64,000 nucleotides of DNA from a virus (IMGVR_UViG_3300007511_001396:1-64000); one strand, 5' to 3'. Shown: positions 2,323 to 24,324, counted from the first letter of the stretch. Notes: generated by a model from the sequence alone, not told the origin. Program-made: numbers and translations.

Positions 2323-2643
2323 ATGAAAATCACGAAACAGCAGTTAATGCGCATTATCAAGGAAGAGTTAGCCAAAACAAACGAATGGCAAGCCTTCGCA
2401 AAAGATGAAGAAGAACCAATTCCTGATGATGATGACCTCGACAAAGAAGGTGAAGAATACGGTGCTGGTTGGAGATTCGCAAAGATGGAAAAATGGAATG
2501 ATACAGGCGCATTGCCTCCAGAGAATGCATCAGTACATTGGGAAGCTGGCTATAAAGCTTGGCAAGATAACGCATCGGGCAACATATATGAAGAAAATGT
2601 CGTCCAAAGTGTTATTGAAAAACTAGCGAATTCAAACAAGTGA
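2323..2643 (+). CDS. Acidic hypothetical protein with MKITKQQLMRIIKEE leader (putative internal virion protein)
   Basis: GGAG RBS at 2312 supports start 2323; leader motif shared with 2640 and 23320. Confidence 0.7.
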   Translation: MKITKQQLMRIIKEELAKTNEWQAFAKDEEEPIPDDDDLDKEGEEYGAGWRFAKMEKWNDTGALPPENASVHWEAGYKAWQDNASGNIYEENVVQSVIEKLANSNK

Positions 2644-2930
2644 AAATAAATAAATCTACATTGATGAACATAATCAAGGAAGAAATAAAAGAGGTGTTGG
2701 CAGAAGGTTGGTCTGACGATTCCATTCAGTCGCGAGTTGATGCTGCGGCAGCCAGAGCCTTCGACGTTGTTTCGCTTTGGGCAGATAAAAGCAACATAAG
2801 TCGACAAGAGTTTATGGACCAATATGAGCACCAAGGCGAAGAAAGTATTGTGAGAGGATTACTTTCGCTTAACAACGCTGACCCTCAAGAAGTCGAAGCC
2901 GAATTAGACTTCATCGAAAAACACATTTAA
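2640..2930 (+). CDS. Hypothetical protein with MKINKSTLMNIIKEEIKEVLAE leader
   Basis: GTG start overlapping previous stop; leader motif. Confidence 0.7.
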   Translation: MKINKSTLMNIIKEEIKEVLAEGWSDDSIQSRVDAAAARAFDVVSLWADKSNISRQEFMDQYEHQGEESIVRGLLSLNNADPQEVEAELDFIEKHI

Positions 2931-2943
2931 CAGAAGGTGACGC

Positions 2944-3165
2944 TTGATAACTCCATTACAGTTTATTGATATATACGAGAGAGCATCTTGCGTTATGATA
3001 CATGCTACTCAGTGCTTAGTGTTGCTCCCAGAGGTGTGTGAGTATGCCGTGAGCCTTGAGAAAAAGATAAAAGAGCTAGAGGGCAGGCTTGAAAATCTTG
3101 AGGGACTAGAGGGCAAGCCTGAGCTCATGCAAAAACACAAAGAGAGAAAACTTCCACCTTGCTAA
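2944..3165 (+). CDS. Hypothetical coiled-coil protein
   Basis: GAAGG RBS; LEKKIKELEGRLENLE heptads. Confidence 0.5.
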   Translation: MITPLQFIDIYERASCVMIHATQCLVLLPEVCEYAVSLEKKIKELEGRLENLEGLEGKPELMQKHKERKLPPC

Positions 3166-3187
3166 AAATACTTATCCGTGTTATAAT
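3159..3187 (+). promoter_or_regulatory. sigma70-type promoter TTGCTA-N17-TATAAT with extended -10 TG
   Basis: Boxes at 3159-3164 and 3182-3187. Confidence 0.6.
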
Positions 3188-3230
3188 AGAAGAAGCAGTT
3201 ACAGTAATATACAATAAGGTAAGCGACATA

Positions 3231-3443
3231 ATGAACCCCACACCAAATCTAGTCAAAGGCGACCTAGTTGTAAGACATTACAGACACTATCCTTTCATTA
3301 GGCCATCCAATTTCTTACAACTAGGAATAATAATGAATGAAATGGACGATAACGTTGTTGAAGTGTATTGGTTCCAAGCTAAAACAAACGAAAGAGTAAC
3401 AAAGAAAGAGCTGGATATAGTAAATGGGCATTCAGAAAAATAA
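3231..3443 (+). CDS. Small SH3/KOW-like protein
   Basis: LVKGDLVVR...LGIIM...VEVYW; start moved downstream of the promoter. Confidence 0.6.
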   Translation: MNPTPNLVKGDLVVRHYRHYPFIRPSNFLQLGIIMNEMDDNVVEVYWFQAKTNERVTKKELDIVNGHSEK

Positions 3444-3666
3444 AACTGCGCATATTATAAGAAAGTCTAGCCGAATGCTTAAGAAGGGTGACCTTGTGGC
3501 AAAAGACGCATATGTGTATAGCCCAGATCGTTATGGTATAGTGATAAATGTTGTCGACAAGAAGACGGTAGATGTATATTGGCTTGATAGCAATAGCTAC
3601 CCTTGGTATAGGCAACAGTCGTCTATGCAAACGAGACACCTGAGACTGTTGTCAAGTGTGGACTAA
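3424..3666 (+). CDS. Small SH3/KOW-like protein (start may be 3475)
   Basis: LKKGDLVAK...YGIVINV...VDVYW. Confidence 0.6.
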   Translation: MGIQKNKTAHIIRKSSRMLKKGDLVAKDAYVYSPDRYGIVINVVDKKTVDVYWLDSNSYPWYRQQSSMQTRHLRLLSSVD

Positions 3667-4499
3667 ACCTCTTCACAGATGATAAAGAGTCCACTTTTTG
3701 GCTTGTGTATTTCTTTAATGCGAACTTGGCCTTTCCTGATTACTTCTTGCTCGTCCGGGTAGACCGAAAAAGAAAAAACTGGAGCGCCTGTTTTCGGACG
3801 TCTAATCATCAACAAGCATCTAATTTTTGTTGAGTGTTCATCGGGTCCAACGTAGATAAAACTTCGAGCTTGTTCTTCATCAGCAGTCCATGAAGATAAG
3901 TCGCGACCAAACATCATTCCAACCTTTAACTCGCTTGCAACATCTTGCGGCAACATTATGCCACGATATATGCTTTGGATGTTGTTCGAAGAGCGTATGC
4001 TGCCTTGCGCCATAGCACTAATTAATGTGTTGGCGACTTGATACTCTCCCAAGCTTGTTTCTACGTCTCCAGCTTTATCGGATTCTCTCCCCAAATTCCT
4101 TAACGTATCCGCCAAGTGTCCAGTAGCCTTGGATTTATCTTTATTGAAATTAGACGGATCGCGGACAGATTCGACATTGCCGCCTGTAAATAAGGCAATA
4201 GACGTCTGTATTATCGTCTGAAAGTCGTCGGTGTTTTTTTGTTTTGCTAATGACTCCTCATCTGTTCCCAAATATGACTTATATTCTGCCCAAGTGCTAA
4301 AGAGTCCTTGTGACGCAAGCTGGTTGGCGACAATGCTGACGAAATCTTGTTCCGGTGATTCCTCCATCGAGAGGGAGTCTTGGAAGTTGTCGTCGATTGG
4401 CCTGCCGGATGCGTGTGTTGCCGATAGTATGTCGTCGAGTGTGTCGGTTGCGCTTGATTCTTTTATTAGTTTGCGCCAGTTTTCTATTATTAATTTCAT
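3663..4499 (-). CDS. R-S-E type mono-ADP-ribosyltransferase with MKLIIENWRKLIKE leader
   Basis: IYRG, LSSWT, DEQEV motifs in canonical order; only credible minus-strand gene. Confidence 0.8.
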   Translation of the reverse strand: MKLIIENWRKLIKESSATDTLDDILSATHASGRPIDDNFQDSLSMEESPEQDFVSIVANQLASQGLFSTWAEYKSYLGTDEESLAKQKNTDDFQTIIQTSIALFTGGNVESVRDPSNFNKDKSKATGHLADTLRNLGRESDKAGDVETSLGEYQVANTLISAMAQGSIRSSNNIQSIYRGIMLPQDVASELKVGMMFGRDLSSWTADEEQARSFIYVGPDEHSTKIRCLLMIRRPKTGAPVFSFSVYPDEQEVIRKGQVRIKEIHKPKSGLFIICEEV

Positions 4500-4543
4500 T
4501 TATTAAGCCTTTCATTTTAAATAGTGTGTGAAAGGCTTAATAA
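4500..4543 (-). promoter_or_regulatory. Perfect 15-bp inverted repeat covering the ART RBS, with CTATTTA in the 14-nt loop
   Basis: TTATTAAGCCTTTCA (4500-4514) / TGAAAGGCTTAATAA (4529-4543); TAAATAG at 4518-4524. Confidence 0.85.
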
Positions 4544-4557
4544 CTAGTAGTTAGTGT

Positions 4558-4788
4558 ATGAGAACAGGCACTTTAGTATCCTTAAAAAATATGAATGACT
4601 GGGAGATGTATGGTGGCCGTGAGAATGGCAAATATGGCATCATTCTTGGCGTTGGTGATGTGTGGGATTTCCACACGTCGCAACCGTTAACCGACGAGAC
4701 AGTTGGCTATCGTGTATTATGGCATGATGGACATTGCGATGTGTATTGGGAATATGAATTGCAAATAATCAGTGAAGTAAAGCCTTGA
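4558..4788 (+). CDS. Small SH3/KOW-like protein
   Basis: MRTGTLVSL...YGIILGV...YRVLW...ELQIISE. Confidence 0.65.
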   Translation: MRTGTLVSLKNMNDWEMYGGRENGKYGIILGVGDVWDFHTSQPLTDETVGYRVLWHDGHCDVYWEYELQIISEVKP

Positions 4789-4817
4789 GTCAGCTACTTA
4801 TTGTAGAGGCAATTGTA

Positions 4818-5084
4818 ATGACACGTAATGAAAATTTTAGAGCAATAATACTAGAAGAGCTAACAAAGACTGATAAAACTGAAATTAAGAAAATGATTTC
4901 GACTGAAGTTGAGAAAAATCTAAAGAAAGAGTTGAAAGATGCGCTTGCTGATGAACTAACCAAGGCGTTAAATTCTAAAGCAACAAAGGAAGACATTGCC
5001 GAAATAACCAAAAAAGTTATGAAGAAGCTTTATAAAGATTTATCTTACCATCATCCCTATATTATCGACCGAATAAAGGTCTAA
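4818..5084 (+). CDS. Helical hypothetical protein with FRAIILEEL leader-like motif
   Basis: CTACTTA at 4794 and GAGG RBS support start 4818. Confidence 0.65.
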   Translation: MTRNENFRAIILEELTKTDKTEIKKMISTEVEKNLKKELKDALADELTKALNSKATKEDIAEITKKVMKKLYKDLSYHHPYIIDRIKV

Positions 5085-5144
5085 ACAACTTCTGGTGCTC
5101 TATTTAAGGGCAATCAAAGCTACAAAGCTTAAAGGAATGAAGAA

Positions 5145-5408
5145 ATGAGTATTAAAATTGGTGCCTTATTGGCTTTTTTGGTGGTAGGCTCTTTGGGAAC
5201 GGGCACTGCAGCGGTTAATTTTAAATCTATTGAATCAAAAGATAATTTAAGAACAGTTGAAGACATTCAGGCAGCCACAATGTATCATGAAATGATTCTT
5301 GTTGCTCCGAATACTTGTTCAACAGAAGAGGTTACAATCGAGAAAAAAATTACGTGTTTTGATAATGAACTTGAATGGTTGATTATATCTGAGGAATCTC
5401 CTATCTAA
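5145..5408 (+). CDS. Secreted/membrane hypothetical protein
   Basis: N-terminal signal-like hydrophobic stretch; AAGGA RBS. Confidence 0.55.
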   Translation: MSIKIGALLAFLVVGSLGTGTAAVNFKSIESKDNLRTVEDIQAATMYHEMILVAPNTCSTEEVTIEKKITCFDNELEWLIISEESPI

Positions 5409-5414
5409 TAATGT

Positions 5415-5651
5415 ATGAGGATTATTTCGTTAAAAATAGGACAGTTGATTCAAGATACGGCCACAGGCGAAATAGGACTCCTTATAAGACGTTATAACGT
5501 TATTCCAGAGTGTGACCCCGCAGTCTGGGTGTGGGAAGTGCTGTGGACTGGTGCCCAATCTAGCGACCAGCGTCGCGTCGACATTTATACAGAAGAAGGT
5601 ATAAAAAATATGATATTGTCCGAAGTATTTCAAGAAATTAAAAGTATTTAA
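5415..5651 (+). CDS. Small SH3/KOW-like protein
   Basis: LKIGQLIQD...IGLLIRR...WEVLW; paralog of 5655. Confidence 0.65.
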   Translation: MRIISLKIGQLIQDTATGEIGLLIRRYNVIPECDPAVWVWEVLWTGAQSSDQRRVDIYTEEGIKNMILSEVFQEIKSI

Positions 5652-5654
5652 AAT

Positions 5655-5945
5655 ATGTACGATGAATACTTGCGAAAGAGCTTAAAAGATGTTATATTAA
5701 CTGTAGGCGATCTGATTATTGATATCGGAGGTGGACATATTGGAGTCCTTGTCAGACGAACCCATAGAATAGATATCATTGAAGATGATGTTTACATATG
5801 GGAGATCTTGTGGATCAGAGATATGACTCTACAGTCGATAGATGTGCCCAGAGATAGTCGATTAGAAGAAGATAATTTAAAAACATCAATAATAATGGGA
5901 ATTTATGACTGGTTCCCAGTAACAGGAGAGCAAAATGACATATAG
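5655..5945 (+). CDS. Small SH3/KOW-like protein
   Basis: LTVGDLIID...IGVLVRR...WEILW. Confidence 0.65.
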   Translation: MYDEYLRKSLKDVILTVGDLIIDIGGGHIGVLVRRTHRIDIIEDDVYIWEILWIRDMTLQSIDVPRDSRLEEDNLKTSIIMGIYDWFPVTGEQNDI

Positions 5946-6590: not shown

Positions 6591-6641
6591 TAAAATTCAA
6601 ACATTTCACTTCTACGTATCTATATGTAGGAGTGTTTTTTT

Positions 6642-6812
6642 ATGTATACCCGTTTTCAAAAAATGGTGCTTTGGACTACCTTTTCGGCTATTTGTGTCAA
6701 TATAGGCATCCTTATGTATGCTAACTGGTCAAACAATTTCGAATTACAGATTATTTCTATTTTAAATATGATTTTATTGAGTTGTGTTCTCTTACGCGAA
6801 GATACAAAATAA
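6642..6812 (+). CDS. 56-aa two-TM membrane protein (not in ORF track)
   Basis: AGGAG RBS; MYTRFQKMVLWTTFSAICVNIGILMY...IISILNMILLSCVLLREDTK*. Confidence 0.6.
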   Translation: MYTRFQKMVLWTTFSAICVNIGILMYANWSNNFELQIISILNMILLSCVLLREDTK

Positions 6813-6828
6813 TAGGAGTGTTTTTAGA

Positions 6829-8427
6829 ATGAAACAGTATGTGAAATATATTTTTGTTCTGGCGGCTATTTTTACTAGCTGCACAGAATATGAACTTCAT
6901 GGTGATAAAAAAACGGTGGTAGTGCCCGAAGAGTCTCCTGATATCTCTGTATATCCTACACATATTGATTTTGGCTCTCTTAATGCGGACGGAGACATTG
7001 CATCAGAAGTAATAGTGATCACTAACGATGGACTTGATACTCTAAATCTTGACAACCTTGAAATGAAGGTTGGTAGTAGCGTCTTTTCTTTGTCCTCATT
7101 GGCCGTAGGATCGCTTGAGCCTGACGAAAAAACAGAACTGACCTTGACATACGATCCAGAAACTTATTCTAGCGACAGCGATTCTATCGTCATTTATTCT
7201 AACGACCCAGATGAACACATTTTAGAAATTCCAATTGTTGGAGAGGGTGCGGCTCCTGTGATTGATATTTCGCCAGAAGAACAAGATATGGGTATGACTT
7301 TAGTCGGCTGCGAAAATGAACAAATAATAAAGATCTCTAATTTTGGTAATGTTGATCTCGAAATAACAAGTGTTAATTATTTTGTTTCTTATCCTGCTGA
7401 CCTTTCTATCAGCACAGAAGAAAATATTAATGGTTTTCTGCCTTGGATTATACCACCAGGTGATTCTAAAATGGTCAAAGTGTATCATAACCCAATGGAC
7501 AGTGGTGCTGATTCAGGCTTTATCGAAATAGAGTCAAACGACCCCTTTGTTCCTGTTGCTGTTGCTGACCAAGACGCTTTTGGGGATTACACGGCGACAT
7601 TTGAAGAAAGATTTGAACAAGAAGAGATTGATTCCGTTGATGTCTTGTTTGTTGTTGATAACTCAGGTTCCATGGGATTCAATCAGATCAATTTATTGAA
7701 CAATTTCAATAGATTCCTAGTGTATTTAACATCTTCCGGAGTTTCATACAATATAGCTTTCATAACTACTGATGATCATGAGCTTGTTGGCCCTGTCATT
7801 AATTCTATGTTGGCAGATCCGTTAGCAGAAGCGTTGACACAAATAGGAAGTATCGGCACCAGAGGAAGCGCCCATGAACAAGGGTTTCAATCATCTCACG
7901 ATGCCCTACAGGCAGGTGGTCCAGCAGGAGATGGTGGGGACTTTTTCAGAAGAGATGCCAAATTAGTTATTATCTATGTTTCCGATGAAGATGATAGAAC
8001 ATATTCACACACACCTGCCACAATGTCTTCTTTTTTGTGGAGCTTAAAAAGCGATACTACGTTGGTAGTAGCTCATGCTATTGCTGGTGATGTGCCAGGG
8101 GGGTGTTCAACTAATGGTGGAGCAGATGAGGCACTAGAATACTTTGATTTGGTGGGATTAATGGGAGGAACATTCTTGTCTATCTGTGAAGATGATTGGA
8201 GTACACCGATGGAGAGCTTGGCTACTGCTTCTATTGTGTATGACACTTTTTTCCTCACCGAAACCCCCCTAGAGCGTACCATTCAAGTATTTGTAAATGG
8301 CGTAGAGGAATCTGGTTGGGTTTATAATAGTTCTGATAATTCTATTGTGTTTGAACGCTCTGCTATTCCATATGATGGCGATGACATTATTGTGGAGTAT
8401 GCTACCTTAGCTGAATGTATTGAGTAG
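6829..8427 (+). CDS. Lipoprotein with Ig-like (choice-of-anchor D-like) repeats and a VWA domain
   Basis: Lipobox IFTS-C; two xSNDP Ig-like repeats; MIDAS DVLFVVDNSGSM and VSDEDD. Confidence 0.8.
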   Translation: MKQYVKYIFVLAAIFTSCTEYELHGDKKTVVVPEESPDISVYPTHIDFGSLNADGDIASEVIVITNDGLDTLNLDNLEMKVGSSVFSLSSLAVGSLEPDEKTELTLTYDPETYSSDSDSIVIYSNDPDEHILEIPIVGEGAAPVIDISPEEQDMGMTLVGCENEQIIKISNFGNVDLEITSVNYFVSYPADLSISTEENINGFLPWIIPPGDSKMVKVYHNPMDSGADSGFIEIESNDPFVPVAVADQDAFGDYTATFEERFEQEEIDSVDVLFVVDNSGSMGFNQINLLNNFNRFLVYLTSSGVSYNIAFITTDDHELVGPVINSMLADPLAEALTQIGSIGTRGSAHEQGFQSSHDALQAGGPAGDGGDFFRRDAKLVIIYVSDEDDRTYSHTPATMSSFLWSLKSDTTLVVAHAIAGDVPGGCSTNGGADEALEYFDLVGLMGGTFLSICEDDWSTPMESLATASIVYDTFFLTETPLERTIQVFVNGVEESGWVYNSSDNSIVFERSAIPYDGDDIIVEYATLAECIE

Positions 8428-8489: not shown

Positions 8490-9245
8490 ATGAACAGAGT
8501 AACGCTTATAATTTTTGCCATCGCTTGGGCGGCGGCCTTATCTTTCGGGTTGGCAACCGCAGCCGCCGCAGCAGAGCCTATCACAAGTAGTGGCTCTGAG
8601 AGCGTCTCAGCTTCTATGTCCCTGGTTGAAAAAAGAGTAAGGGAGGCTGCAGTGCAAATAGTTTTTGCGACAGGTGGACACGGCTCTGGCTCGCTTATAA
8701 AATATAAAGATTTACATCTTGTGATTACTGCCCAGCACGTTGCAGACGGGAGTTTGGGGAAAGTTTATCATGTTCAAAAGAGAGACGAGATAAAGAGAGG
8801 TGTTTTAGTTTATTCAGATGAGGCTCACGACATTGCAATTTTATTAATAACTCCGTCTAATCGTTTTGTGGGCATTAAACCTATCAAATACAACCCTCTA
8901 AAGGATATTGCTGAGGTGGGTACCAAAATTATTTATTCTGGCTATCCTTCGCACCACAGCACTCTTTCATTTAGAGGAGAGATTGTCGGGAATGAAGTTG
9001 TTAACGGCGCAGGAACAATGTTAATGATAGACGTGTTTGGCTGGTTTGGGTCATCTGGTTCTGTTGTGTACAATACAGATGGACAAATCGTTGGAATATT
9101 GTGGGGAGTAGATGTTGAAAGGCGACGAAATAATCAAGTGAACGAAAATATGGTCTGGGTTTCGCCTATACAAAATCTAGACATTGATTTAGCTATTAAA
9201 GCTTTGTGCAATGGACTAAATAAACCACCAAAAGCTTGTAGATGA
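8490..9245 (+). CDS. Secreted trypsin-like serine protease
   Basis: Signal peptide; TAQH, DIA, GSSG catalytic triad motifs. Confidence 0.85.
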   Translation: MNRVTLIIFAIAWAAALSFGLATAAAAAEPITSSGSESVSASMSLVEKRVREAAVQIVFATGGHGSGSLIKYKDLHLVITAQHVADGSLGKVYHVQKRDEIKRGVLVYSDEAHDIAILLITPSNRFVGIKPIKYNPLKDIAEVGTKIIYSGYPSHHSTLSFRGEIVGNEVVNGAGTMLMIDVFGWFGSSGSVVYNTDGQIVGILWGVDVERRRNNQVNENMVWVSPIQNLDIDLAIKALCNGLNKPPKACR

Positions 9246-9703
9246 TAAATATTAAATGGAAGAAACTCGTCGATAACGAGAAACTAAATACAGTGGCGTC
9301 TGTTATTTGCTCCGATGAAGATAAGATATTAGTTTTATTGAGATCAGAAACTGATAGCTTTGCACCATTACATTGGGATTTACCAGGTGGCCATGTAGAT
9401 GATTCAGATGCATCGATAGAGGCCGGGGCAATTAGAGAATTGGCCGAGGAGGCTGGATTAATAGCCAATTTAGATGATTTAAGATATGTAACCAAGAAGA
9501 GATTTAATAACACAAATAAATATTTCTTTATAATATCTGAATGGGATGGTGCTGTCAGGCTAATAAAAAATCCAAAAACTGGTATCCTTGAACACATTGA
9601 ATATAAATGGCTCACAATTAGTGAAATAAAAGAACTAGAAAAATCAATTATTCCCGCCTATTTATTGAAAAAAGGATTGGAGTTCTTAGATGACAAATTT
9701 TAA
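9242..9703 (+). CDS. Nudix hydrolase
   Basis: Nudix box GGHVDDSDASIEAGAIRELAEEAGL. Confidence 0.9.
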   Translation: MINIKWKKLVDNEKLNTVASVICSDEDKILVLLRSETDSFAPLHWDLPGGHVDDSDASIEAGAIRELAEEAGLIANLDDLRYVTKKRFNNTNKYFFIISEWDGAVRLIKNPKTGILEHIEYKWLTISEIKELEKSIIPAYLLKKGLEFLDDKF

Positions 9704-12401
9704 TAATGTTTGGAAAACTTTTTTAAACGAGAGTGGGTTCCAAAACGGACAATCTATTCAAGAAATCACAGACGACGAAGTAGAGCACATCCGCCCGATT
9801 CTTGACAGAATGGAAGAAGATCCAGACGCTCTCGCTTTTGGGGAATTATTCGATGGCAAAAACCGCCTCGTAATCGACTTTCCAACAACAGACGACACAT
9901 CAGAGATCGGTCGATTTATTGATATGATTGAAAACCAGCACGGCCTAACAGTCGACTACGCCAAGGGAATGGTTTCAGCAGAAAGAAAATTCAAGGCCGC
10001 CGCCCCAGACATTACTGGTGTGTCATATGCTTTAGGTGGAAAAGAGGTGACTAAAAAGTTCCAAATGAAGATTGGTAAGTATTTTGCCAAACTTGAAGAG
10101 CTTTTTTCGCGTTGGGCAGATATAATGCGAGAGGCGGACAAAACTTTGCAAAAGTCAAGTGGCCCAACTGCTCGACCCAAACTGGCTAGAATCTGGATTG
10201 GGCGCGGGGATTTCCCAAAAGCTTTCACTCCCGAAACTCTAAAAAATTATTTTAACACCGTAAACCAACTTGCGCTTTATACAAACATAAATCCCAGTGT
10301 TGTTGGCCATTGGAATCGTGCGGAGAAGTTTTTAGCCCCCACCGCTCGACGGAAATATGTCGCCGACGCTGAAGAACGGCGGCAAACCCAAGATGAAGAG
10401 GACAAGAGGAGGGGAAAAGAGCCTCGGAAGCGCAAACCTGTTGTTGCTCCAAGAACAGTGTTTGGTGTCTGGGCAGAATTCTGGGTTCAGAACGCTGATT
10501 ACATCAAGAAGAACATCGACGACATTAAGAGCGGCAACAAATACTCCATGGTCATCACTCGCCACCCCATCGATGTTCTCCGTATGGCTGACTTCGACCC
10601 TTTTGAATCTTGTCACTCGCCGCCATCACGACAAAACACTGAAAGCTATTATAAATGTGCTGTTGCAGAGGCTCACGGCGAAGGCGCCGTTGCTTATGTT
10701 GTCGAGACTGCTGATCTTCTAGCCACAACCGACTCTGGTACAATAGAAGAGGCCGAGGGCAAAATACAAGAGGGAGAGTTGTTCGCAGACGAGGCCCGGT
10801 ACGGTGTTCACGGACATCATGAGGAATTAGAGCCCGTCTCTCGTTTAAGATTGAGGTTGGCGAATGCTGTGATGGGCGGTGGCGAAGTTTCTGACATCGC
10901 TGTTCCCGAAGCTCGTGTATACGGTGAACCAATTGCTGGCCTCCAAGCTCGCCTATTGAAGTGGGCTCAAGAAAAGCAAGCACACATAGTCGAAAAGCTT
11001 CCGAGAACAAAAGACGGTAAATATGATCTCGGGAAAATACATTTCCGAGGAGGCTCTTATAGCGACTCTGGCGGCGAAGGCGGTCTTGGAGTGCGCTTTC
11101 GCGAGTTGATAGGGGTAGATCGAACTGAAACTATCGGGAACGTAAACAAGGATAATACAACTGAAGAAGAACTCCCTAGTCACGTTGAAGGCCTTATTGG
11201 TCGGTGGACAGAGGAGTGCACGGAGATCGCTGACAAATGGAACGACATGATGAAATACATCGACATGGGTTTCGACGTCGAAGACGACGGCGCTGGCGGT
11301 GTGTATATCCAACCATCTGCTAAAATTAGTATACAGATACCAAGAACAGATTTCTCTCGCCTTCCAAACCACAGCGACGTTAATGATTTAGTTTCCGAAG
11401 CCGGTGAGTATTTTAGAGATGTTGGGTATGGCTATGTGGGAAGTATAACATACTCACATATGCCAAGGAATCACATGATCGTCGGCTGGAACATCGATCC
11501 AGAGGCAGTGCCGGGAATGCCACAGCAGGACATCTATTTCGACCCAGAGATACTCGATGACCTCGGCGCAGAATTAAACAAAATCGATGATTTGGAAAAT
11601 GATTATGAGTTGTTCAGTAAAAAAGTATTGCAGCTGTTTAAACGTGACGGATGGATGTCAGGTGGCACCTTCCAGAACTGGGCCCTCGAACTTTATGATG
11701 ACAACGACCTGTATTATGAGTGGTCTGCGACGATTGATGAGCCTGACGAGCATGACGAGTTCTATGAGATTGAACTAAAGACCACCGACACCATAATCAA
11801 TCTTGCTGACTTCGTTGATAAGGACAAATACACGGTTAAGTGGAAATCCGGCAACCCAACAATAGCTTCTATCAATAACTATCCTGTGGCCTATGTTTAT
11901 AGTACAGGTAGGGGTGAAGAAGTCGAGGTCTCTGAAGCTCAAGAAGGTTTAAACGGGTATTACGATACATTTGCGAAAGCTAAACAAAACATTGAGGCTA
12001 TACTTGGAGAAAACGACTACGCTTATGACAGGATTATAAGTATTCTCAACAGCAGAGATTTTAGCATCGCTCTCAAAAAAGCCATGGGTGAAGGGAACCT
12101 TACTGATGGAATGTGGATGCCGAACTGGAATGTTAGTGCTAAAATGGCAGGCTCCTACGGCGATGAGGGCGACGTTGAAATAGAGATCGCAATGGCATCC
12201 GACGCCGACGACCCTGACGCTGCTGTTGCCTCGATGAAATCTGTGGCAGAAGAGTGGGACGACAACGACGAACTCAATGCAATGATTGCGAAGGTTGCTA
12301 AAGTTGTGCTGACCAAGGAATTGCAAGAGTCGAGGGTCAAAGGCAGAGTGAATGAGAACAAGAAAATAGTAAATACTTGGAAGGAATTTTTAAAATCATG
12401 A
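9690..12401 (+). CDS. 903-aa hypothetical protein, putative internal virion protein
   Basis: WKTFLNE N-terminal and WKEFLKS C-terminal motifs; CTATTTA upstream; ITRHPIDVLRM...SCH core. Confidence 0.75.
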   Translation: MTNFNNVWKTFLNESGFQNGQSIQEITDDEVEHIRPILDRMEEDPDALAFGELFDGKNRLVIDFPTTDDTSEIGRFIDMIENQHGLTVDYAKGMVSAERKFKAAAPDITGVSYALGGKEVTKKFQMKIGKYFAKLEELFSRWADIMREADKTLQKSSGPTARPKLARIWIGRGDFPKAFTPETLKNYFNTVNQLALYTNINPSVVGHWNRAEKFLAPTARRKYVADAEERRQTQDEEDKRRGKEPRKRKPVVAPRTVFGVWAEFWVQNADYIKKNIDDIKSGNKYSMVITRHPIDVLRMADFDPFESCHSPPSRQNTESYYKCAVAEAHGEGAVAYVVETADLLATTDSGTIEEAEGKIQEGELFADEARYGVHGHHEELEPVSRLRLRLANAVMGGGEVSDIAVPEARVYGEPIAGLQARLLKWAQEKQAHIVEKLPRTKDGKYDLGKIHFRGGSYSDSGGEGGLGVRFRELIGVDRTETIGNVNKDNTTEEELPSHVEGLIGRWTEECTEIADKWNDMMKYIDMGFDVEDDGAGGVYIQPSAKISIQIPRTDFSRLPNHSDVNDLVSEAGEYFRDVGYGYVGSITYSHMPRNHMIVGWNIDPEAVPGMPQQDIYFDPEILDDLGAELNKIDDLENDYELFSKKVLQLFKRDGWMSGGTFQNWALELYDDNDLYYEWSATIDEPDEHDEFYEIELKTTDTIINLADFVDKDKYTVKWKSGNPTIASINNYPVAYVYSTGRGEEVEVSEAQEGLNGYYDTFAKAKQNIEAILGENDYAYDRIISILNSRDFSIALKKAMGEGNLTDGMWMPNWNVSAKMAGSYGDEGDVEIEIAMASDADDPDAAVASMKSVAEEWDDNDELNAMIAKVAKVVLTKELQESRVKGRVNENKKIVNTWKEFLKS

Positions 12402-13231: not shown

Positions 13232-13603
13232 ATGAAAGCTATTGTTTTCAAAAACAGTAAAATACCACAGCTGTTAAGTATTGTTATACCTGTGGGGGCT
13301 ATTACTTTATTTCCTTTTATTTTTATTAGGGGTGATGGAGATGAGCGTGTGATAAATCATGAAAGCATTCATATCGCTCAATATGCTGAACTCTGGGTAA
13401 TTGGGTTTTTATTTTTATATGCTCTCGACTATTTGCGGGGCTACATAAAATACTGGCACATTCGTAGTGACATTTCACCAGCAGCACATAAATTTGCGGC
13501 TTATAAAAACATTCGTTTTGAACAAGAGGCATATTCTTATGAGTATGATATGAACTATTTAGAGAATAGGGTGCCATATGCTTGGCGAAAATATAAGATT
13601 TAA
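13232..13603 (+). CDS. Membrane-associated HExxH metallopeptidase-like protein
   Basis: INHESIHIAQ and FEQEAY motifs; hydrophobic segments. Confidence 0.7.
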   Translation: MKAIVFKNSKIPQLLSIVIPVGAITLFPFIFIRGDGDERVINHESIHIAQYAELWVIGFLFLYALDYLRGYIKYWHIRSDISPAAHKFAAYKNIRFEQEAYSYEYDMNYLENRVPYAWRKYKI

Positions 13604-13606
13604 ACA

Positions 13607-13978
13607 ATGAAATTAATTTTTGAAAATTGGCGAAAGTTTGTATCCGAGGAAGAGGACACACAGCCCTCCGAGTATATTGATTTTAAAAGAGGTGACTGCT
13701 CTCTCTTGGCTAATGTAGTGGCAGATATGTTAGAACTGCCGACTTACGGCATTTTTGATAAAGCAGGCAACATACAGCATGTTTTTGTCTATGATCCTGA
13801 TACCGATGAAGCTATAGATTGTCGCGGAAGAATGCCAGTTAGAGATATAACCCAAAACATTCGTGGAGACGATTTAACTTATAGAAAAATAACACAACAA
13901 GAAATTAAAGATACATTTGGCACATATAGTGATGAAGAATACGAATATGCTGAAGAAGAGGCACACTCAATCATATGA
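13607..13978 (+). CDS. Small papain/transglutaminase-like (Cys-His-Asp) protein with MKLIFENWRKFVSEE leader
   Basis: GDCSLLA...QHVFV...IDCRG. Confidence 0.55.
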   Translation: MKLIFENWRKFVSEEEDTQPSEYIDFKRGDCSLLANVVADMLELPTYGIFDKAGNIQHVFVYDPDTDEAIDCRGRMPVRDITQNIRGDDLTYRKITQQEIKDTFGTYSDEEYEYAEEEAHSII

Positions 13979-14658
13979 AACTCCTACTTGAACAATGGCG
14001 ACAGTTCGTTAATGAAGAATATGAGCCGATTACAACTCTGCGAGTTTTTGATTTTGACGAAACAATAGCTCACACTCGTTCCGTAACACGTGTTACAGCC
14101 CCAGATGGTTCAACATTTTCCTTATCTGATCAGAAAGAATTTGACAGCTTTATGTCTTCTATGGCCGAAAAAGAGGGCATTAAAACATTTGATCCAGTTA
14201 GTGAGTTGATAAAGCTAGGATATAAAATGGATTTTTCTGATTTTGGAATTGTCAAAGAACCAACAGAAATAACAATTGTTACGGATGTGTTACGCACCTT
14301 CCCAACTAACTCTAAAACATATGTTATGACAGCAAGACGAGGCAACTCAATTGGGCCAATATTAGACTATTTAGAAGATATTGGTATAGACTCGTCAAAA
14401 GTTAGACCTATTGCAACCCAAGGTCAGTCAAAGGGGGCAACAATAGCACAAATGATAAGTAATAAAATAATGTCTACAGGTAAATCTAATATTACGCGAG
14501 TAGAATATTATGAAGATTCAGATAAAAACATTCAAGATGTTTTAGATCATATTTGTCGAGGAAATATTGATGCCATAAAAACAAAAGATTTTGAACTAGT
14601 CATATATAAAGTTATTTCTAATGGCGATGGATACACTTTTGAAAAGATTGGTTGCTAA
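13975..14658 (+). CDS. HAD-superfamily phosphatase with MKLLLEQWRQFVNEE leader
   Basis: FDFDET motif I, MTAR motif II, K, YEDS motif IV. Confidence 0.8.
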   Translation: MKLLLEQWRQFVNEEYEPITTLRVFDFDETIAHTRSVTRVTAPDGSTFSLSDQKEFDSFMSSMAEKEGIKTFDPVSELIKLGYKMDFSDFGIVKEPTEITIVTDVLRTFPTNSKTYVMTARRGNSIGPILDYLEDIGIDSSKVRPIATQGQSKGATIAQMISNKIMSTGKSNITRVEYYEDSDKNIQDVLDHICRGNIDAIKTKDFELVIYKVISNGDGYTFEKIGC

Positions 14659-16971: not shown

Positions 16972-17235
16972 ATGTCGATGAATATAGATTGGCAACAGTT
17001 TATTATAGGTGAGGGTGTAGAAGATAAAAACATTTTTACCTATTTGCAGGGTCTTCAAGAGATCCTTAATAACTTGCGCCCTAAAACAATGACTGAACAG
17101 CGGCGAGTTGCTTTGGCTAAACAACATCTACGGGAAATAAAAAGAGCATCTCGAAAGATGCTTAATGAGATGAATGTTTTACAAGAAAAGATCAACATTC
17201 TGGAAGAAAGTAGGACAGAGACTGTCAATGACTAA
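16972..17235 (+). CDS. Hypothetical helical protein (NIDWQQFIIGE leader-like)
   Basis: GGGAG RBS; W-x-x-F motif near N-terminus. Confidence 0.65.
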   Translation: MSMNIDWQQFIIGEGVEDKNIFTYLQGLQEILNNLRPKTMTEQRRVALAKQHLREIKRASRKMLNEMNVLQEKINILEESRTETVND

Positions 17236-19408: not shown

Positions 19409-19419
19409 TGGAGGTTATT

Positions 19420-20742
19420 ATGAAATGGAAAAGTTTAGCTTTATTAGCATTGCTAGGTTGCGAAGAGGGTAAAATCACTGGTGAAGCCTCCGATGTGGAC
19501 GGAGCAGAGGACTCAGCTGACGAAGGGGCCGAAGAGGAGGCTCCAAAGGCCGTCAACGGTACTATTTCGGGGACGGTGGAAGTTCAGCTTTATCAGTCTG
19601 GCGATGACGGCGAACGGGAGTATGTCTCTTGGGACGAAGCCACTGGGGGAGTTTATATCTTCGGTAGTATTTTTGTATCGAGCTATTTTGTGGACGAAGA
19701 AGGTTTTGAGCACTTTACTGGGGACGCAGTGGTCGAAAACCCCGAAGTCACACCTAACGAATACACCTTGGAAATGGGGCTAGACGACGCAAGAGGTGTT
19801 TATGTGTACTCTATCGTTGATTACTGGCAGGACAGAATTATTGGCTCGTCAGAGCCTAAAGGCGTATACCCGCTAGAAGTTGATGTGGTTAACGGCGCGG
19901 ACGTAACCGACATCGATATGAACATTCTCACCCCTATTTACAGCGGTGGCGGTGGTTGTGGCGGTAGCGGCGGTGGTGGTGGAGAAGGCTCTGGTCTAGC
20001 TAGCAGTATCGAGATCAGCGGGGACGCTTACATCACGATGTCTTACGCTGGCGGTTCAGCCGCAGCAATGATTATGAACAGCAACAACGAAGGGCCTTAC
20101 TGGTACAACTGGTTTACACCAGAGAGCGCTGGTGGTGGAGCTGTTGGATCTTACGGAATGCGTACTTGCTCTGGATATGGCGAGATGCAGTTGGTGGCAG
20201 CTTGGGACTCTAATGGCAACAATATGATTGATCCTACAGACCGCTGGGGTGCATTCGCTCCAACTCCAGACGTAGATGGAAATCCGATTGATATCCAATA
20301 CGAAGACCTAGAAGGCTATGATTTACAGATTCCTCTCGGTGATGGGCCTGGGTTAAATATGGTTCCATTTGTACGCTTAACGGGTGATGTACACATTCCT
20401 GATGCCACTTTTGACGAGCTACCAAGCGGCACTACAGTTTACGTGGCGGCCTTAAAATACCGTCCAGACGGTGAGTTCTCTGTAGCAGAACTTGGTTCGG
20501 CCTACGACTTGGTAACCTATGAGTGGCCTGAATTAACTGGTGAAACCCAAAAGGACTACGCGTTAACGGTTCCAGCCAACACGATTGCGTACTTGTGGGC
20601 ATATGCTGACATGGATGGCAACGGTGTTGTCAACGAGTCCGGTGAGCCAATCGCAAGTGGTGGAGACGAGAATGGAAAAGTCCCAACTGGTACAACGCCA
20701 ACATCATCAAACGATTTAAGTTTGCACACTGCAAACGAATAA
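19420..20742 (+). CDS. Acidic lipoprotein with repeated beta domains and DxDGN-type Ca-binding loops
   Basis: GGAGG RBS; lipobox LLG-C; WDSNGNNMID, ADMDGNGVVNE; Gly-rich linker. Confidence 0.75.
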   Translation: MKWKSLALLALLGCEEGKITGEASDVDGAEDSADEGAEEEAPKAVNGTISGTVEVQLYQSGDDGEREYVSWDEATGGVYIFGSIFVSSYFVDEEGFEHFTGDAVVENPEVTPNEYTLEMGLDDARGVYVYSIVDYWQDRIIGSSEPKGVYPLEVDVVNGADVTDIDMNILTPIYSGGGGCGGSGGGGGEGSGLASSIEISGDAYITMSYAGGSAAAMIMNSNNEGPYWYNWFTPESAGGGAVGSYGMRTCSGYGEMQLVAAWDSNGNNMIDPTDRWGAFAPTPDVDGNPIDIQYEDLEGYDLQIPLGDGPGLNMVPFVRLTGDVHIPDATFDELPSGTTVYVAALKYRPDGEFSVAELGSAYDLVTYEWPELTGETQKDYALTVPANTIAYLWAYADMDGNGVVNESGEPIASGGDENGKVPTGTTPTSSNDLSLHTANE

Positions 20743-20751
20743 ACAATATAA

Positions 20752-21115
20752 GGGGGCGCAATGGTTTCGACTAGGTAAGAGAAACGAATAGTGCAAGTAG
20801 TCTAACGAATAACAGACTTAAAATGTAGTTCAAAAAAATAATTGCTAATAACAATAATTTCTACAACGACGCTGCCTTAGCAGCATAGTAGGGAGGTGCT
20901 TAGAGCCTTCTATCCAATCTAAGCTAAATGCCTGATTCACATTGACGTTATAACGAATCAAAATGGTTACCCTACTTGTAGTAGGTGGACCCAGAGACGA
21001 CATAAGGGTGGTTGAATACTGTCGTAACCTTTGCTGGGATTAGAAACCAGATAAACTTGTGAATGACTTGAAATGGAAATTATTTAGGACAGCGGTTCGA
21101 CTCCGCTCGCTTCCA
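20752..21115 (+). ncRNA. ssrA: tmRNA
   Basis: 5' GGGGGCGCAATGGTTTCGAC; 3' GGACAGCGGTTCGACTCCGCTCGCTTCCA; acceptor stem with G3:U; tag ORF 20844-20888 ANNNNFYNDAALAA*. Confidence 0.95.
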
Positions 21116-21172
21116 ACTCCACCAAAAAACCCGCCGTTTCCATTACTTTAAACTATTTATTATAAAGGAGTA

Positions 21173-21733
21173 ATGGAAATGGCCAAGGTTTTTATAAAGT
21201 GCGAAGTATGTGATTTAGAATTTGAAAGAAAAAGGGGTGAGGTAAACAGAAGTAAGAGATTAGGTAGACCTCAATATTGCTCAAGGAGGTGTTCCGCAAA
21301 GGCGAACGAAGGATCTTTAGGAGAGCATTTAGGCTCGGGCAGACCAGAAAACCTAATAAAAGGAAACCGGAGAGACAAATACTCGGAGTTTAAATGGTTT
21401 ATGAGGTGTATAAGACGAAGAAACAAAGAATACAACGTTGATTTAGAATTCCTAAAAAACTTATGGGAAGAACAATCAGGTATCTGTCCACTAACAGGTT
21501 GGAGCCTAATGTTGCCTAAACACTCAAGCAAATGGAAAACAAAACAAGAAAAACAGTATCGGGCTAGTATCGATAGAATCGACAATTCGAAAGGATATAC
21601 CAAAGGGAATATAAGGTTTATTTCAGTCATGGCGAATTATTGTAAGAACGACTTTACAGATGAAGAGGTTAAACTGTTTTGTGAAGCTGTCGTTAAAAAC
21701 GCCTCCACCTCGTCACCACCTCGTCACCACTAA
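21173..21733 (+). CDS. Free-standing HNH-type homing endonuclease with Zn-finger N-terminus
   Basis: CEVC...YCSRRC; GICPLTG, SIDRIDNSKGYTKGNIRFI...N. Confidence 0.8.
   Translation: MEMAKVFIKCEVCDLEFERKRGEVNRSKRLGRPQYCSRRCSAKANEGSLGEHLGSGRPENLIKGNRRDKYSEFKWFMRCIRRRNKEYNVDLEFLKNLWEEQSGICPLTGWSLMLPKHSSKWKTKQEKQYRASIDRIDNSKGYTKGNIRFISVMANYCKNDFTDEEVKLFCEAVVKNASTSSPPRHH
21708..21730 (+). repeat. 11-bp tandem repeat CCTCGTCACCA x2
   Basis: Visible right after CGCCTCCA at 21700. Confidence 0.8.
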
Positions 21734-21806
21734 CAGGTGACAAAAAAGTCACACACAAACTGACGAATAAGATACTATTTACTTTAGTCAACGGAGACAC
21801 GAGTGA

Positions 21807-22079
21807 ATGATTTCAGAAGAACTATTTTTGCAAGCTGGATTAATAGGAGCAGCCCTTACTGGGTGTTTTTGGGTAATCGGTGTTCATATTTATAGGGCAA
21901 TAATCTTTTCAATGTCGGCCACTAGACAGAAAAAAATAGAAGAAATAAATTTAATAGTTCAAGATTTATTAGATGAAGCAACAAACACTAATCGATGTGA
22001 TATAATTGATATTGAGGAATGTGAAATAGAAATTGTTCCTCATAACAGAAAACAAATAAGGAAAAAAAATGACAGATAA
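21807..22079 (+). CDS. Membrane-anchored hypothetical protein
   Basis: N-terminal TM; GGAG RBS; CTATTTA upstream. Confidence 0.6.
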   Translation: MISEELFLQAGLIGAALTGCFWVIGVHIYRAIIFSMSATRQKKIEEINLIVQDLLDEATNTNRCDIIDIEECEIEIVPHNRKQIRKKNDR

Positions 22080-22248
22080 TAGCGAAATCAAAAATTGGAA
22101 GAACGTAGGGACATTTGATACTTTTCAAGAAGCAAACGAATTACGAGATAATTTAAAAGATAGCTTTGGCGAAGACATTCAAGTAAAAATAAAACGCTGT
22201 GGTCATGCTGGTCTCAGATACCAAGTTAAGACTTATTATGGGGCTTAA
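22069..22248 (+). CDS. 59-aa SPOR-like small protein (not in ORF track)
   Basis: AAGGA RBS; VGTFDTFQEANELRDNLK pattern; abuts the next start. Confidence 0.55.
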   Translation: MTDNSEIKNWKNVGTFDTFQEANELRDNLKDSFGEDIQVKIKRCGHAGLRYQVKTYYGA

Positions 22249-22716
22249 ATGAAAGAAAAGAAAAACAAAACAGTAATGGTATCTGGCGGTATGGATCCTA
22301 TACATTTTGGTCATGTGCGTATGATCCAAGAGGCAGCCAAATACGGCGATGTCATTGTGGTCTTGAATTCAGATAAGTGGCTGTTTAGAAAAAAAGGCTT
22401 TGTTTTTATGAATTACGACCAAAGAGCCGAGATAGCCAACGCCATAAAAGGAGTCACAGTTGTATCAAAAGTAGACGACAAAGATAACACAGTTTGTGAA
22501 GCAATTGAACGCTTGAAACCAGATTATTTTGCAAATGGTGGAGACAGAGGGAGAACAAACACCCCAGAAGTAAATTTATGCAAAGAAATGGGTGTAGAAT
22601 TGTTGTGGGGTATCGGTGGTAACAGTAAGGTTGCCAGTTCAAGCGATTTAGCGTCTAAGGCAAGAAATTCACAGCCACATCCACCCAAAGCCAAAAGAAA
22701 GGTATCAAAAAAGTAA
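22249..22716 (+). CDS. Cytidylyl/adenylyltransferase (TagD/RfaE-like)
   Basis: SGGMDPIHFGH, NSD, FANGGDR, SSS. Confidence 0.85.
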   Translation: MKEKKNKTVMVSGGMDPIHFGHVRMIQEAAKYGDVIVVLNSDKWLFRKKGFVFMNYDQRAEIANAIKGVTVVSKVDDKDNTVCEAIERLKPDYFANGGDRGRTNTPEVNLCKEMGVELLWGIGGNSKVASSSDLASKARNSQPHPPKAKRKVSKK

Positions 22717-22810
22717 TACTATTGCTCTAGCGAAGGTATAGTTACAATAATGCTGGAGAAAACATTTGAAAGACATTGCAGGCACACATCCATTCCAGCA
22801 AGATATTAGA

Positions 22811-23323
22811 ATGAAAGCCTTAAAGTTGGACTCTTCTTATCGGCCAATAGAAATAATAGACGCAATAGAAGCTTTAGTTATGTGCTTAATGGGGAAAGCT
22901 CAAGCTGTTGAATCGTATGATAGAGAAATACGATCTCCGAGTAAATCATTTAAAATACCAGCAGTCGTAGTTTTGAAGCGTTATATTAAGAAAAATAGTT
23001 TATCGGTAACTCCGAATAGATTAAATGTTGTTTGGCGAGACCAAAATCAGTGTCAATATTGTGCGAAGAAATTTAAAACTTGTGATCTGACTATCGACCA
23101 CATCTTGCCTAAGAGCCGAGGCGGCACAAAGTCTTGGACAAATCTTACGACAGCATGCAAAAAATGTAATCAAGCAAAGGGAAATAAAACACCAAGTGAA
23201 TGTGGTATGTACCCTCTACGAAAGCCATCACAACCACAGTCTACAATAATGTTTTATTTGAAAAGGGGTGCTATAAATGATTTATGGCAAGACTACTTAT
23301 GGGAAAAGGTTATGGCTGAATGA
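22811..23323 (+). CDS. HNH endonuclease (McrA-like)
   Basis: RDQNQCQYC, TIDHILPKSRGG, NLTTACKKCNQAKG. Confidence 0.9.
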   Translation: MKALKLDSSYRPIEIIDAIEALVMCLMGKAQAVESYDREIRSPSKSFKIPAVVVLKRYIKKNSLSVTPNRLNVVWRDQNQCQYCAKKFKTCDLTIDHILPKSRGGTKSWTNLTTACKKCNQAKGNKTPSECGMYPLRKPSQPQSTIMFYLKRGAINDLWQDYLWEKVMAE

Positions 23324-24324
23324 TTATCACAACAGAAAGACTTAAACAAATAATAAAAGAAGAGGTCTCACAATATATTGTTGAAGGCGGCAATATTTTC
23401 AAAGGAGAGACCCAAAGCATCCCAAGAGAATCAATTAGGCCAACACTGGAGCGTTATTATAAGATCCTCAAAGATTTATTTCCTCAGAAAGCTGAAGTGT
23501 TCGACAAATTTGAACCTGTTGGCTCTGTGGGTAAAAAACCGGTGTCTGGTGATATTGACATAGCTCTTGACGCCAGAGAGATGTTCGATGGTGGTGAAAT
23601 AAACTCCGAAGAACTAATCAAGTGGAATGTAGACCCGCAACGCTGGGAAGAAGAGTTTCAAAAGATACACAAACGAGCTAGGACAGCATCAGAAAAAATG
23701 TCACGATGGAAAGCCTTTCTTAGATTAGTGGGAGAATACACAGAACAGAATGCTGAAATGATCAAGGTTGCTCCAGCTAAAGTAACTTATAATAATTTGT
23801 TTTCTTTATTCCCACAGTTTGATGTAGATGGTATTGAACAGCCATTTGGCGTTCAGATAGATTGGATGATTGGCGGCATCGAATGGTTGAAGTTTGCTTA
23901 TCACTCAGACCCTCCAGTCGATGGAGAGAACATTAAAGGCTTACACAGAACACAATTAATGTTGGCAATGTTTGGACAAAAGGGATATTCTTTCCAACAT
24001 GGCCGTGGAGTAATAAACAAAGAGACAAAAGAAATTGTGGTTGACACCCCAGAAGAGGCATTAAATCTGTTAGGTAATTTATATCACACCCCCATCACAA
24101 GAGAACAAACAAACAATTATCACAACCTTCATCAATACTTACTACAAAACGCGACAGAAAAAGAATACAATGATGTTATTGATTCTTATTTAAAGATTTT
24201 AGATTACACAAGGGCAGATATCCCATTGGACATTCAAGATAAATGGATCGAAAACAAAGAAAGATTAAAACTAACAGGAAGATATCTTCCAGATGATTCA
24301 AATCTAAAGAGATATGCTATTTAA
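23320..24324 (+). CDS. Pol-beta superfamily nucleotidyltransferase with MIITTERLKQIIKEE leader
   Basis: VGSVGKKPVSGDIDIAL (GS...DxD), VQIDWM third Asp. Confidence 0.75.
   Translation: MIITTERLKQIIKEEVSQYIVEGGNIFKGETQSIPRESIRPTLERYYKILKDLFPQKAEVFDKFEPVGSVGKKPVSGDIDIALDAREMFDGGEINSEELIKWNVDPQRWEEEFQKIHKRARTASEKMSRWKAFLRLVGEYTEQNAEMIKVAPAKVTYNNLFSLFPQFDVDGIEQPFGVQIDWMIGGIEWLKFAYHSDPPVDGENIKGLHRTQLMLAMFGQKGYSFQHGRGVINKETKEIVVDTPEEALNLLGNLYHTPITREQTNNYHNLHQYLLQNATEKEYNDVIDSYLKILDYTRADIPLDIQDKWIENKERLKLTGRYLPDDSNLKRYAI

Follow-up and report, generated by a model that had tools for sequence, protein, structure and literature searches.

In T4 phage, a short N-terminal capsid-targeting sequence (CTS) takes every internal head protein to the scaffolding core (PMC5694885). 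N-terminal propeptides are then cleaved off after a glutamate by the gp21 protease, both from the internal proteins and from gp23, gp24, and Alt; the last, a packaged ADP-ribosyltransferase (ART), is cut at ITE-6 (PMC5694885). The internal proteins of T-even phages are diverse, and only the CTS is conserved among them (PMC3012670). Many head-internal proteins of the giant phages phiKZ and SPN3US carry N-terminal propeptides cut after glutamate by a gp21-related protease, and paralogues can share identical N-termini (PMC5694885). Here, we describe two classes of short N-terminal leader, termed W and K, that are shared by otherwise unrelated proteins encoded in a 64,000-nucleotide stretch of viral DNA (IMGVR_UViG_3300007511_001396:1-64000; this whole stretch is hereafter called the window) and in further uncultured phages. 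Given that these leaders follow the same logic as the T4 CTS, with the same junction chemistry and protease family, and grade into T4-like leaders on a family of predicted nucleotidyltransferases (NTases), we consider that they probably constitute a load-and-cut propeptide system of the T4 CTS type, with new leader sequences and mostly enzymatic cargo.

Anatomy of the W and K Leaders

The W leader (consensus MKLLLENWRKFLNE) follows the pattern MKL[LI][MLF]ENW[RNK][KR]F[LIV]xE over exactly 14 residues and has an invariant tryptophan. The K leader spans 14–22 amino acids and reads MKITKxQLKQIIKEE, usually followed by [LI]xx[VL]LxE; in another genome, this class takes the form MKIAKTKLKQIIKEE. 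Both classes share the skeleton M-K-h-x4-h-x2-h-h-x-E (h, hydrophobic), and the leaders quoted in the initial annotation do all end in hydrophobic-x-Glu, as it had stated. Conservation extends to positions of the W leader that the search pattern left open, N7 being kept in 89 of 114 and F11 in 110 of 114, and mean pairwise identity drops from 0.71 over residues 1–14 to 0.08 over residues 15–28, i.e., conservation stops at the final glutamate. When the glutamate was not required by the scan, E14 was found in 169 of 189 leaders, while most others had E15 with [LIV]-x-E kept, an arrangement also seen in the kinase-like protein of the window.

In the AlphaFold2 model of a window protein with conserved Cys, His, and Asp residues (the Cys-His-Asp protein), the leader forms a helix (residues 3–13) that is unpacked against a well-folded body, and a low-confidence linker follows the leader glutamate, the length of which varies among orthologues. 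The leader is predicted to be an amphipathic helix detached from the body. Its occurrence in the window is far beyond chance, as a degenerate DNA pattern for each class gave three window matches and none in 100 shuffles. The peptide is maintained even though its codons vary at synonymous positions, so selection operates at the level of the peptide rather than the DNA.

Leader Exchange and the Junction with a Predicted Nucleotidyltransferase

Pattern scans of IMG/VR returned at least 120 stretches for each of the W and K leaders, and the leader figures that follow cover the matches listed. The W leader was found on at least 134 proteins, the bodies of which form at least 72 BLAST clusters once the leader is removed, and the K leader on at least 177 proteins (at least 158 body clusters), bearing out the earlier view of a modular tag on unrelated bodies. 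Leaders of either class can be found on five body families, with the exchange falling exactly at the hydrophobic-x-Glu. The initial annotation had also raised the possibility of two docking routes, one for each class; this is unsupported, because the two classes share one skeleton and swap freely on the same bodies in these five families.

The strongest result is the junction in the NTase family, where very different leaders meet one body at what appears to be a T4-protease-type site. In the window, the sequence across this junction (marked here by a slash) is ...YIVE/GGNIF, following a 22-residue K leader, versus ...FLNE/GGNVF after a 14-residue W leader in two homologues (L007 and L113). We examined the best 120 of 1659 NTase homologues, picked by body regardless of leader. 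Six of these are leaderless and start MGGN; the remaining 114 bear an N-terminal extension (median 13.5 amino acids), which in 113 cases ends in [LIVMF]-x-E immediately before GGN. Glu occupies P1 in 113, whereas P3 holds Leu (74), Ile (26), Val (8), or Phe (5), with Leu or Ile found in 100 of the 114. W leaders account for 25 of the extensions, K leaders for 3, and short leaders resembling the T4 CTS for at least 40, and some extensions hold two h-x-E sites in series.

The likeness to the T4 CTS drawn in the initial annotation is partly borne out: the W and K leaders share only the skeleton MK…h-h-x-E with it, and leaders identical to it at 6 of 10 residues occur on NTase bodies of other phages (MKSFREFIVE and MITFKEFITE, compared with MKTYQEFIAE of T4). 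By pattern search, MKTYQEFIAE itself is found on two neighboring T4 genes, presumably ipII and ipIII. We also noted that the cultured Flavobacterium phage immuto encodes, beside its NTase, an NT5C nucleotidase with an N-terminal extension ending LLEE, and that the NT5C-type body bears W leaders in uncultured phages.

Prohead Protease, Head Module, and a Candidate Promoter Element

Relatives encode a gp21-type protease, with Peptidase_S77 scoring above the Pfam cut-off in all 10 of the large leader-bearing contigs tested (172–293 kb, 7 rated at least 96% complete). These include G002 and G005, complete viral genomes of 181 kb and 184 kb with a gene order matching that of the window. Immuto phage also encodes Peptidase_S77. 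The leaders likewise end in what reads as the T4 protease motif, (L/I)-x-E, and when the capsid proteins of G002 and G005 are aligned with T4 gp23, LLKE/A and LLRE/Y fall at FLTE/A, which we take to be the site at which gp23 matures. The gene directly after the protease has a K-like start in G005 (MNKEQLKKLLKPIV…) and related starts in G002 and G003. In G004, the gene after the protease contains WRTFLNE, and a canonical W-leader gene lies inside the head module.

A capsid propeptide segment, h-h-x-KW-x-K…LLEG, is kept between G002 (L136, 15075–16997) and T4 gp23 (L266, 8946–10511). We considered whether the W leader mimics this capsid N-terminal KW..LLEG; the likeness is loose and undetected by leader hidden Markov models (HMMs), and we retained it as a weak lead only.

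The initial annotation had placed CTA(T/C)TTA upstream of most leader genes. CTATTTA was found within 60 nt upstream of only 4 of the 11 genes listed (2287/2323, 4499(−), 9690, and 13607), with further (A)CTATTTA positions in the window at 21153, 24317, and 57594. The motif shows a strong bias toward the coding strand (19:2 in the window, 33:3 in G002, and 33:1 in G005) and precedes the scaffold/capsid operon, tail genes, and several leader genes. Short, A/T-rich, and without a second box, it has the look of T4-type late promoters, and we regard it as a candidate general late-type promoter element. A candidate late sigma factor (48125–48832) had no match in Pfam, PHROG, or T4.

Leader Distribution and Source Phage

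An in-frame stop codon lies within a few codons upstream in nearly every case, and the leaders are therefore true N-termini. The K-tagged proteins listed are mostly small (median 108 amino acids), with their genes in tandem arrays. Within 596 Gb of prokaryote genomes scanned, we found only three leader matches. One (L271, NHHP01000006.1) belongs to the 800-kb metagenome-assembled genome (MAG) of 'Candidatus Pelagibacter sp. TMED166', where the W-leader gene is located on a 116-kb contig. Given that two T4-type (S77) prohead protease genes accompany it, the MAG most likely includes mis-binned phage contigs. The other two are short contigs of unrelated MAGs (Woesearchaeota and Isosphaeraceae) carrying an identical W-leader gene, the product of which is identical over 80 compared residues to a phage protein (L050/L120). 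The leader tag is essentially confined to phage DNA.

Leaders of this kind had been expected in cyanophages. By pattern search of cultured T4-like phages, no exact leaders were present in P-SSM2, Syn9, S-PM2, HTVC008M, or RM378 phages, and no W leader in immuto phage. Three shorter K-like leaders (MKKSQL..IIKE) are encoded by immuto phage, at gp095, gp094, and gp080. A word-based protein search with residues 1–40 returned orthologues only and no other tagged families. In the cultured-phage collection, neither megablast of the region nor tblastn of leader peptides of 20–30 amino acids, or of the 903-aa protein described below, gave anything useful. The leader strings were not found in the literature searched, and titles and abstracts yielded no virion proteome for immuto phage.

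The window is taken from an IMG/VR virus record of 74,320 bases with a CheckV completeness of 41%, of which it covers the leading 64 kb. It codes for gp25- and gp6-like baseplate wedge proteins, a gp5-like lysozyme domain, and PhoH, along with a large sugar-metabolism island. The source phage is an uncultured, distant T4-like myovirus (marine), given the synteny with G002 and G005, the T4 gp23 type of their major capsid protein, and the nearest cultured relatives by that protein, namely Flavobacterium phage immuto, Microcystis phage Mel-JY01, and Rhodothermus phage RM378. In complete genomes, leader genes make up roughly 12–17 of 200–230 open reading frames (ORFs) and are concentrated in one block of 10–15 kb, the counterpart of the region at 2–15 kb in the window, while a leader HMM scan found replication and structural proteins to be without leaders.

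Leader-Bearing and Neighboring Genes in the Window

All N-termini quoted in the initial annotation are present in the window and lie at genuine ORF starts (Table 1). By our count, four window proteins bear the W leader, another three bear degenerate forms of it, and three bear the K leader. The three weak W cases (the Nudix, 903-aa, and 87-aa proteins) score low by HMM when taken alone; their assignment is upheld by homologues bearing canonical or short W-type leaders. Ten homologues of the 903-aa protein bear the canonical W leader, as do homologues of the Nudix and kinase-like proteins; other Nudix homologues start with a short form (M..KWNxFLTE), and homologues of the 87-aa protein start MS[LI]DxxW[RK]xFLxE. 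From these short forms, the core of the W leader can be defined as W-x-x-[FY]-[LI]-x-E.

The assignment of the small charged protein at 4818 to the K class is only partly supported, given that its K-like start is conserved within the family but obtains no score from the leader HMM. The module typical of this family (…IILEELTKxDKxEIKKMI…) is found at the C-terminal end of large ORFs as well, in two contigs (L031 and L166). The large ORF of L031 starts with a W leader and has K-like motifs preceding the 4818-type module, an arrangement that hints at C-terminal or internal processing. In G002, a 333-aa ORF (L131, 11642–12643) has an N-terminal K leader, with the K-type motif occurring complete once more at residues 216–236 (…KITKSQLKQIILEELDSTLTE), and may represent two fused cargo genes or contain an internal processing site.

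Several genes of other kinds lie within or near the leader cluster. The HExxH protein (HESIH in the window and HETIH in G005, 11718–12113) has a hydrophobic N-terminal segment and a downstream FExEAY motif and sits inside the leader cluster in both; it has no Pfam match and no homologue in G002. For the trypsin-like protease, no homologue was found in G002 or G005, and the only match to the Ig-like protein in these genomes is a partial one, in G005. Homologues of the 3302-aa protein measure 2263 amino acids in G002 and 4831 amino acids in G005.

Table 1. Coordinates of leader-bearing genes and other features of the window (nt. counted from its first base; aa, amino acids).
Feature	Position	Strand	Remarks
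CTATTTA late-type promoter-like element	2278–2284	+	Upstream of ORFs 2287/2323
K-leader protein, 106 aa	2323–2643	+	Start MKITKQQLMRIIKEE; K-HMM 37.8 bits
K-leader protein, 96 aa	2640–2930	+	GTG start; leader to VLAE, then GW
W-leader protein, 278 aa	3663–4499	−	C-terminal R-S-ExE ADP-ribosyltransferase-like domain, residues about 150–278
CTATTTA element	4518–4524	−	Upstream of 4499(−)
Small charged helical protein	4818–5084	+	K-like start (…FRAIILEEL), conserved within family
547-aa protein	6784–8427	+	Ig-like (HYDIN/VesB-type) domain; mid leader cluster
Trypsin-like serine protease	8490–9245	+	Signal-peptide-like N-terminus by eye; mid leader cluster
Nudix hydrolase	9242–9703	+	Degenerate short W-type leader MINIKWKKLVDNE; Pfam NUDIX, E 9e-17
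CTATTTA elements	9658–9664 and 13555–13561		Upstream of 9690 and 13607
903-aa protein	9690–12401	+	Degenerate W leader MTNFNNVWKTFLNE
Kinase-like W-leader protein (lead only), 277 aa	12398–13231	+	Leader end INE at residue 15
Small untagged membrane protein	13232–13603	+	HExxH motif; within leader cluster
W-leader protein, 123 aa	13607–13978	+	Conserved Cys, His, Asp
W-leader HAD-type phosphatase-like protein	13975–14658	+	DFDET motif
87-aa protein	16972–17235	+	Short W-type leader MSMNIDWQQFIIGE; weak by HMM
Transfer-messenger RNA (tmRNA)	20752–21115	+	ARAGORN call; tag peptide ANNNNFYNDAALAA
Pol-beta-type nucleotidyltransferase-like protein	23320–24324	+	22-aa K leader
B12-type radical-SAM-like protein	34103–35653		Judged by eye
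1985-aa ORF	51223–57180		Flanks baseplate wedge genes
3302-aa ORF	61003–70908 in record (past window end)		Flanks baseplate wedge genes

Putative Cargo Proteins

The functional labels of the initial annotation held to different degrees. The Nudix label was confirmed by Pfam, and the ESM Atlas supports an ART domain in the W-leader protein at 4499(−), with feature matches to ADPrib_exo_Tox and Mod_ADP_RT (T4 Mod-like) of 0.93 and structure matches up to TM 0.77. By eye, this protein also shows the motifs YRG, SSW, and EQE (R / S-x-S / E-x-E), while it had no Pfam, PHROG, or PDB sequence match. The other labels are weaker. The HAD label has the motif DxDxT and a homologue match to HAD_SAK_1 just under the cut-off, and the NTase label the motif G-S…D-x-D alone. 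For the kinase label, a T7-type kinase is a lead only. Papain-like enzymes form the top VIA-align rows for the Cys-His-Asp protein, with weak scores (Z of 4.5 or less), and Foldseek with its model returned no match. None of the ART, HAD, NTase, kinase-like, Cys-His-Asp, and 903-aa bodies was matched in sequence searches of Pfam, PHROGs, and PDB, and the 903-aa body also had no cultured-phage match.

Across 102 W-tagged proteins, Pfam gave few matches, which comprise GNAT, HAD_SAK_1, NUDIX, Zeta_toxin, P-loop kinases, protein kinase, GDSL hydrolase, and ParB_N. Only 2 of the 60 longest K-tagged proteins had any match. Homologues of the window HAD domain are embedded near residue 2000 in ORFs of 2850–3350 amino acids (L003, 3971–12520; L004; L005, 2693–12742), and these giant ORFs had no Pfam match.

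Proposed Mechanism and Alternative Explanations

If the leaders act as the T4 CTS does, the tagged genes would be transcribed late, alongside the head genes, and the free N-terminal amphipathic helix would dock each protein on the scaffolding core while the prohead grows. Cleavage after the final glutamate of (L/I/V/F)-x-E by the prohead protease (gp21-type, Peptidase_S77) would follow, and the mature protein would remain in the DNA-filled head and probably enter the host with the DNA. The cargo would consist of ART, Nudix, HAD, nucleotidyltransferase, kinase-like, and thiol-enzyme-like proteins, together with many small orphan proteins. We infer that the proteins dock on the core, are cleaved, stay in the head, and are ejected into the host to act there, with delivery to the host suggested by the enzyme types among the cargo and the precedent of Alt. 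The proposal of the initial annotation that the leader is a T4-type capsid-loading tag is upheld in part, as the leaders are modular and CTS-like, end in (L/I)-x-E, and occur in relatives that encode a gp21-type protease; the writer/eraser logic it proposed for the enzymes is conjectural.

Several observations weigh against loading and cutting as in T4. The tagged proteins are known from genes alone, and the head module and prohead protease are absent from the window's own 74-kb contig, itself a fragment (41% complete). The leader HMMs do not match scaffold or capsid proteins. Late timing is judged from position alone, and CTATTTA also precedes the untagged PhoH and gene 21173, so the motif is not specific to tagged genes. 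Many bodies look like ordinary enzymes, and the bodies are mostly acidic (median pI 4.9, with 70–76% below pI 6 versus 46% of all ORFs). Given that T4 internal proteins are basic, this acidity would be a real difference. The conserved glutamate could in principle belong to the NTase body, yet six leaderless homologues start MGGN. Finally, the NTase of cultured immuto phage is leaderless and lies among replication genes (between primase, exonuclease, and NadR; L277, 106221–110455).

The main rival, which we think unlikely, is that the leader docks, as a helix, on some partner that is not the capsid (a multi-enzyme hub, a chaperonin, or a membrane or assembly site), with the glutamate as an uncut part of the binding motif. 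A detached amphipathic helix would suit this role, as would the acidic bodies, many of which look metabolic (e.g., NT5C-type nucleotidases and P-loop kinases). Fusion proteins are reportedly directed to GroEL by the N-terminus of T4 gp23 (PMC3012670), and both gp23 and the capsid protein of this lineage start with KW..LLEG, which loosely resembles the W core. However, no conserved partner gene was found, and such docking leaves unexplained why 113 of 114 dissimilar extensions end in (L/I/V/F)-x-E at the NTase junction, why T4-CTS-like leaders occupy the same position, and why S77 co-occurs with leaders in every large contig tested. Quite improbable, in our estimation, is a system in which T4-style loading and cutting take place without delivery to the host, the proteins instead acting in the prohead or head (e.g., in assembly, DNA condensation, or charge balance) or being degraded and expelled in the manner of scaffold fragments. 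The same loading and cutting evidence would apply here, and the bodies are acidic, as are the core-derived internal peptides of T4. Fragments of T4 core proteins and propeptides also leave the capsid (PMC5694885). Set against this, the recognizable cargo (ART, Nudix, Zeta-toxin-type and protein kinases, GNAT, HAD, and NTase) makes sense only in a cell, and T4 Alt provides the precedent of an ART that is both packaged and injected.

It is very unlikely that the leader is a recognition site for a modifying or processing enzyme that is not the prohead protease, although the window does encode a radical-SAM-like protein, a trypsin-like protease, and an HExxH protein within the leader cluster. The first two have no homologue in the leader-rich G002 and G005, the HExxH protein has one in G005 only, and the trypsin-like protease bears an apparent export signal (by eye); we set all three aside as leader processors because they are not conserved with the leaders. 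We give almost no weight to the idea that the shared 5′ ends are a functionless by-product of cassette shuffling, through recombination at a common gene start. The clustering of tagged genes in tandem arrays and the fast turnover of bodies are what shuffling would produce, but the leader DNA has diverged synonymously with the peptide kept, free positions of the pattern are conserved (the N7 and F11 counts above), and recombination would not preserve h-x-E across dissimilar leaders.

Beyond loading and cutting in themselves, we put forward tentatively, as a possibility, that a widespread uncultured marine T4-like lineage loads several hundred protein families via interchangeable, removable leaders and delivers them with its DNA, and that the cargo so delivered may include ARTs, protein and Zeta-type kinases, GNATs, Nudix and HAD proteins, and nucleotidyltransferases. 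Phage proteins that enter the cell ahead of phage gene expression are known for only a handful of model phages; if the leaders worked as the T4 CTS does, these proteins could be recognized by a 14-residue motif across thousands of genomes from uncultured marine phages. The leader would then be a sequence key to the injected effector repertoire of uncultured phages from metagenomes, exposing a very large, fast-evolving, and mostly uncharacterized set of candidate host-takeover and counter-defence enzymes, and the tagged set of T4 (IPI-III and Alt) would be the small end of a much broader strategy. It could also serve as a portable protein-packaging tag, including for foreign proteins in non-coliphage capsids. 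With interchangeable leader classes that all join the body at a single, exact h-x-E position, the proposal makes a clear-cut mass-spectrometry prediction.

Comparison with Known Systems

The closest counterpart is the T4 CTS (MKTYQEFIAE on IPI-III and Alt), likewise a short N-terminal peptide on unrelated proteins that starts with MK and ends in hydrophobic-hydrophobic-x-Glu. Related genomes encode an S77 protease, an ART is among the cargo, as with Alt, and small cargo genes lie in tandem in fast-evolving arrays, as those of the T4 internal proteins do; on the NTase family, T4-CTS-like leaders take the same position. The ejection and inner-body proteins of phiKZ and SPN3US phages similarly have N-terminal propeptides ending at a Glu site, though their protease is of family S80 with the motif S/A-x-E, and no single portable tag extends across hundreds of families there.

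Two further systems resemble parts of this one. The polyvalent proteins of phages and conjugative elements, reportedly described by Iyer, Burroughs, Anand, de Souza, and Aravind in 2017, overlap in effector-like domains (ART, ParB_N, Zeta-type kinase, and 'Swiss army knife' HAD), and the HAD homologues embedded in ORFs of 2850–3350 amino acids in other viral contigs recall them; unlike in polyvalent proteins, each domain here is a separate gene with its own leader. The cargo-loading peptides of encapsulins also direct unrelated enzymes into an HK97-fold shell by means of a short terminal peptide, a functional analogy only. They differ from the leaders in being mostly C-terminal, and they are not known to be removed by a maturation protease.

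What is known already is thus the logic of the T4 CTS. What is new, and unlike T4, are the leader sequences, the coexistence of two or more classes in one genome, a far larger cargo repertoire that is largely enzymatic and mostly acidic, and a distant, uncultured lineage known here from its genes alone.

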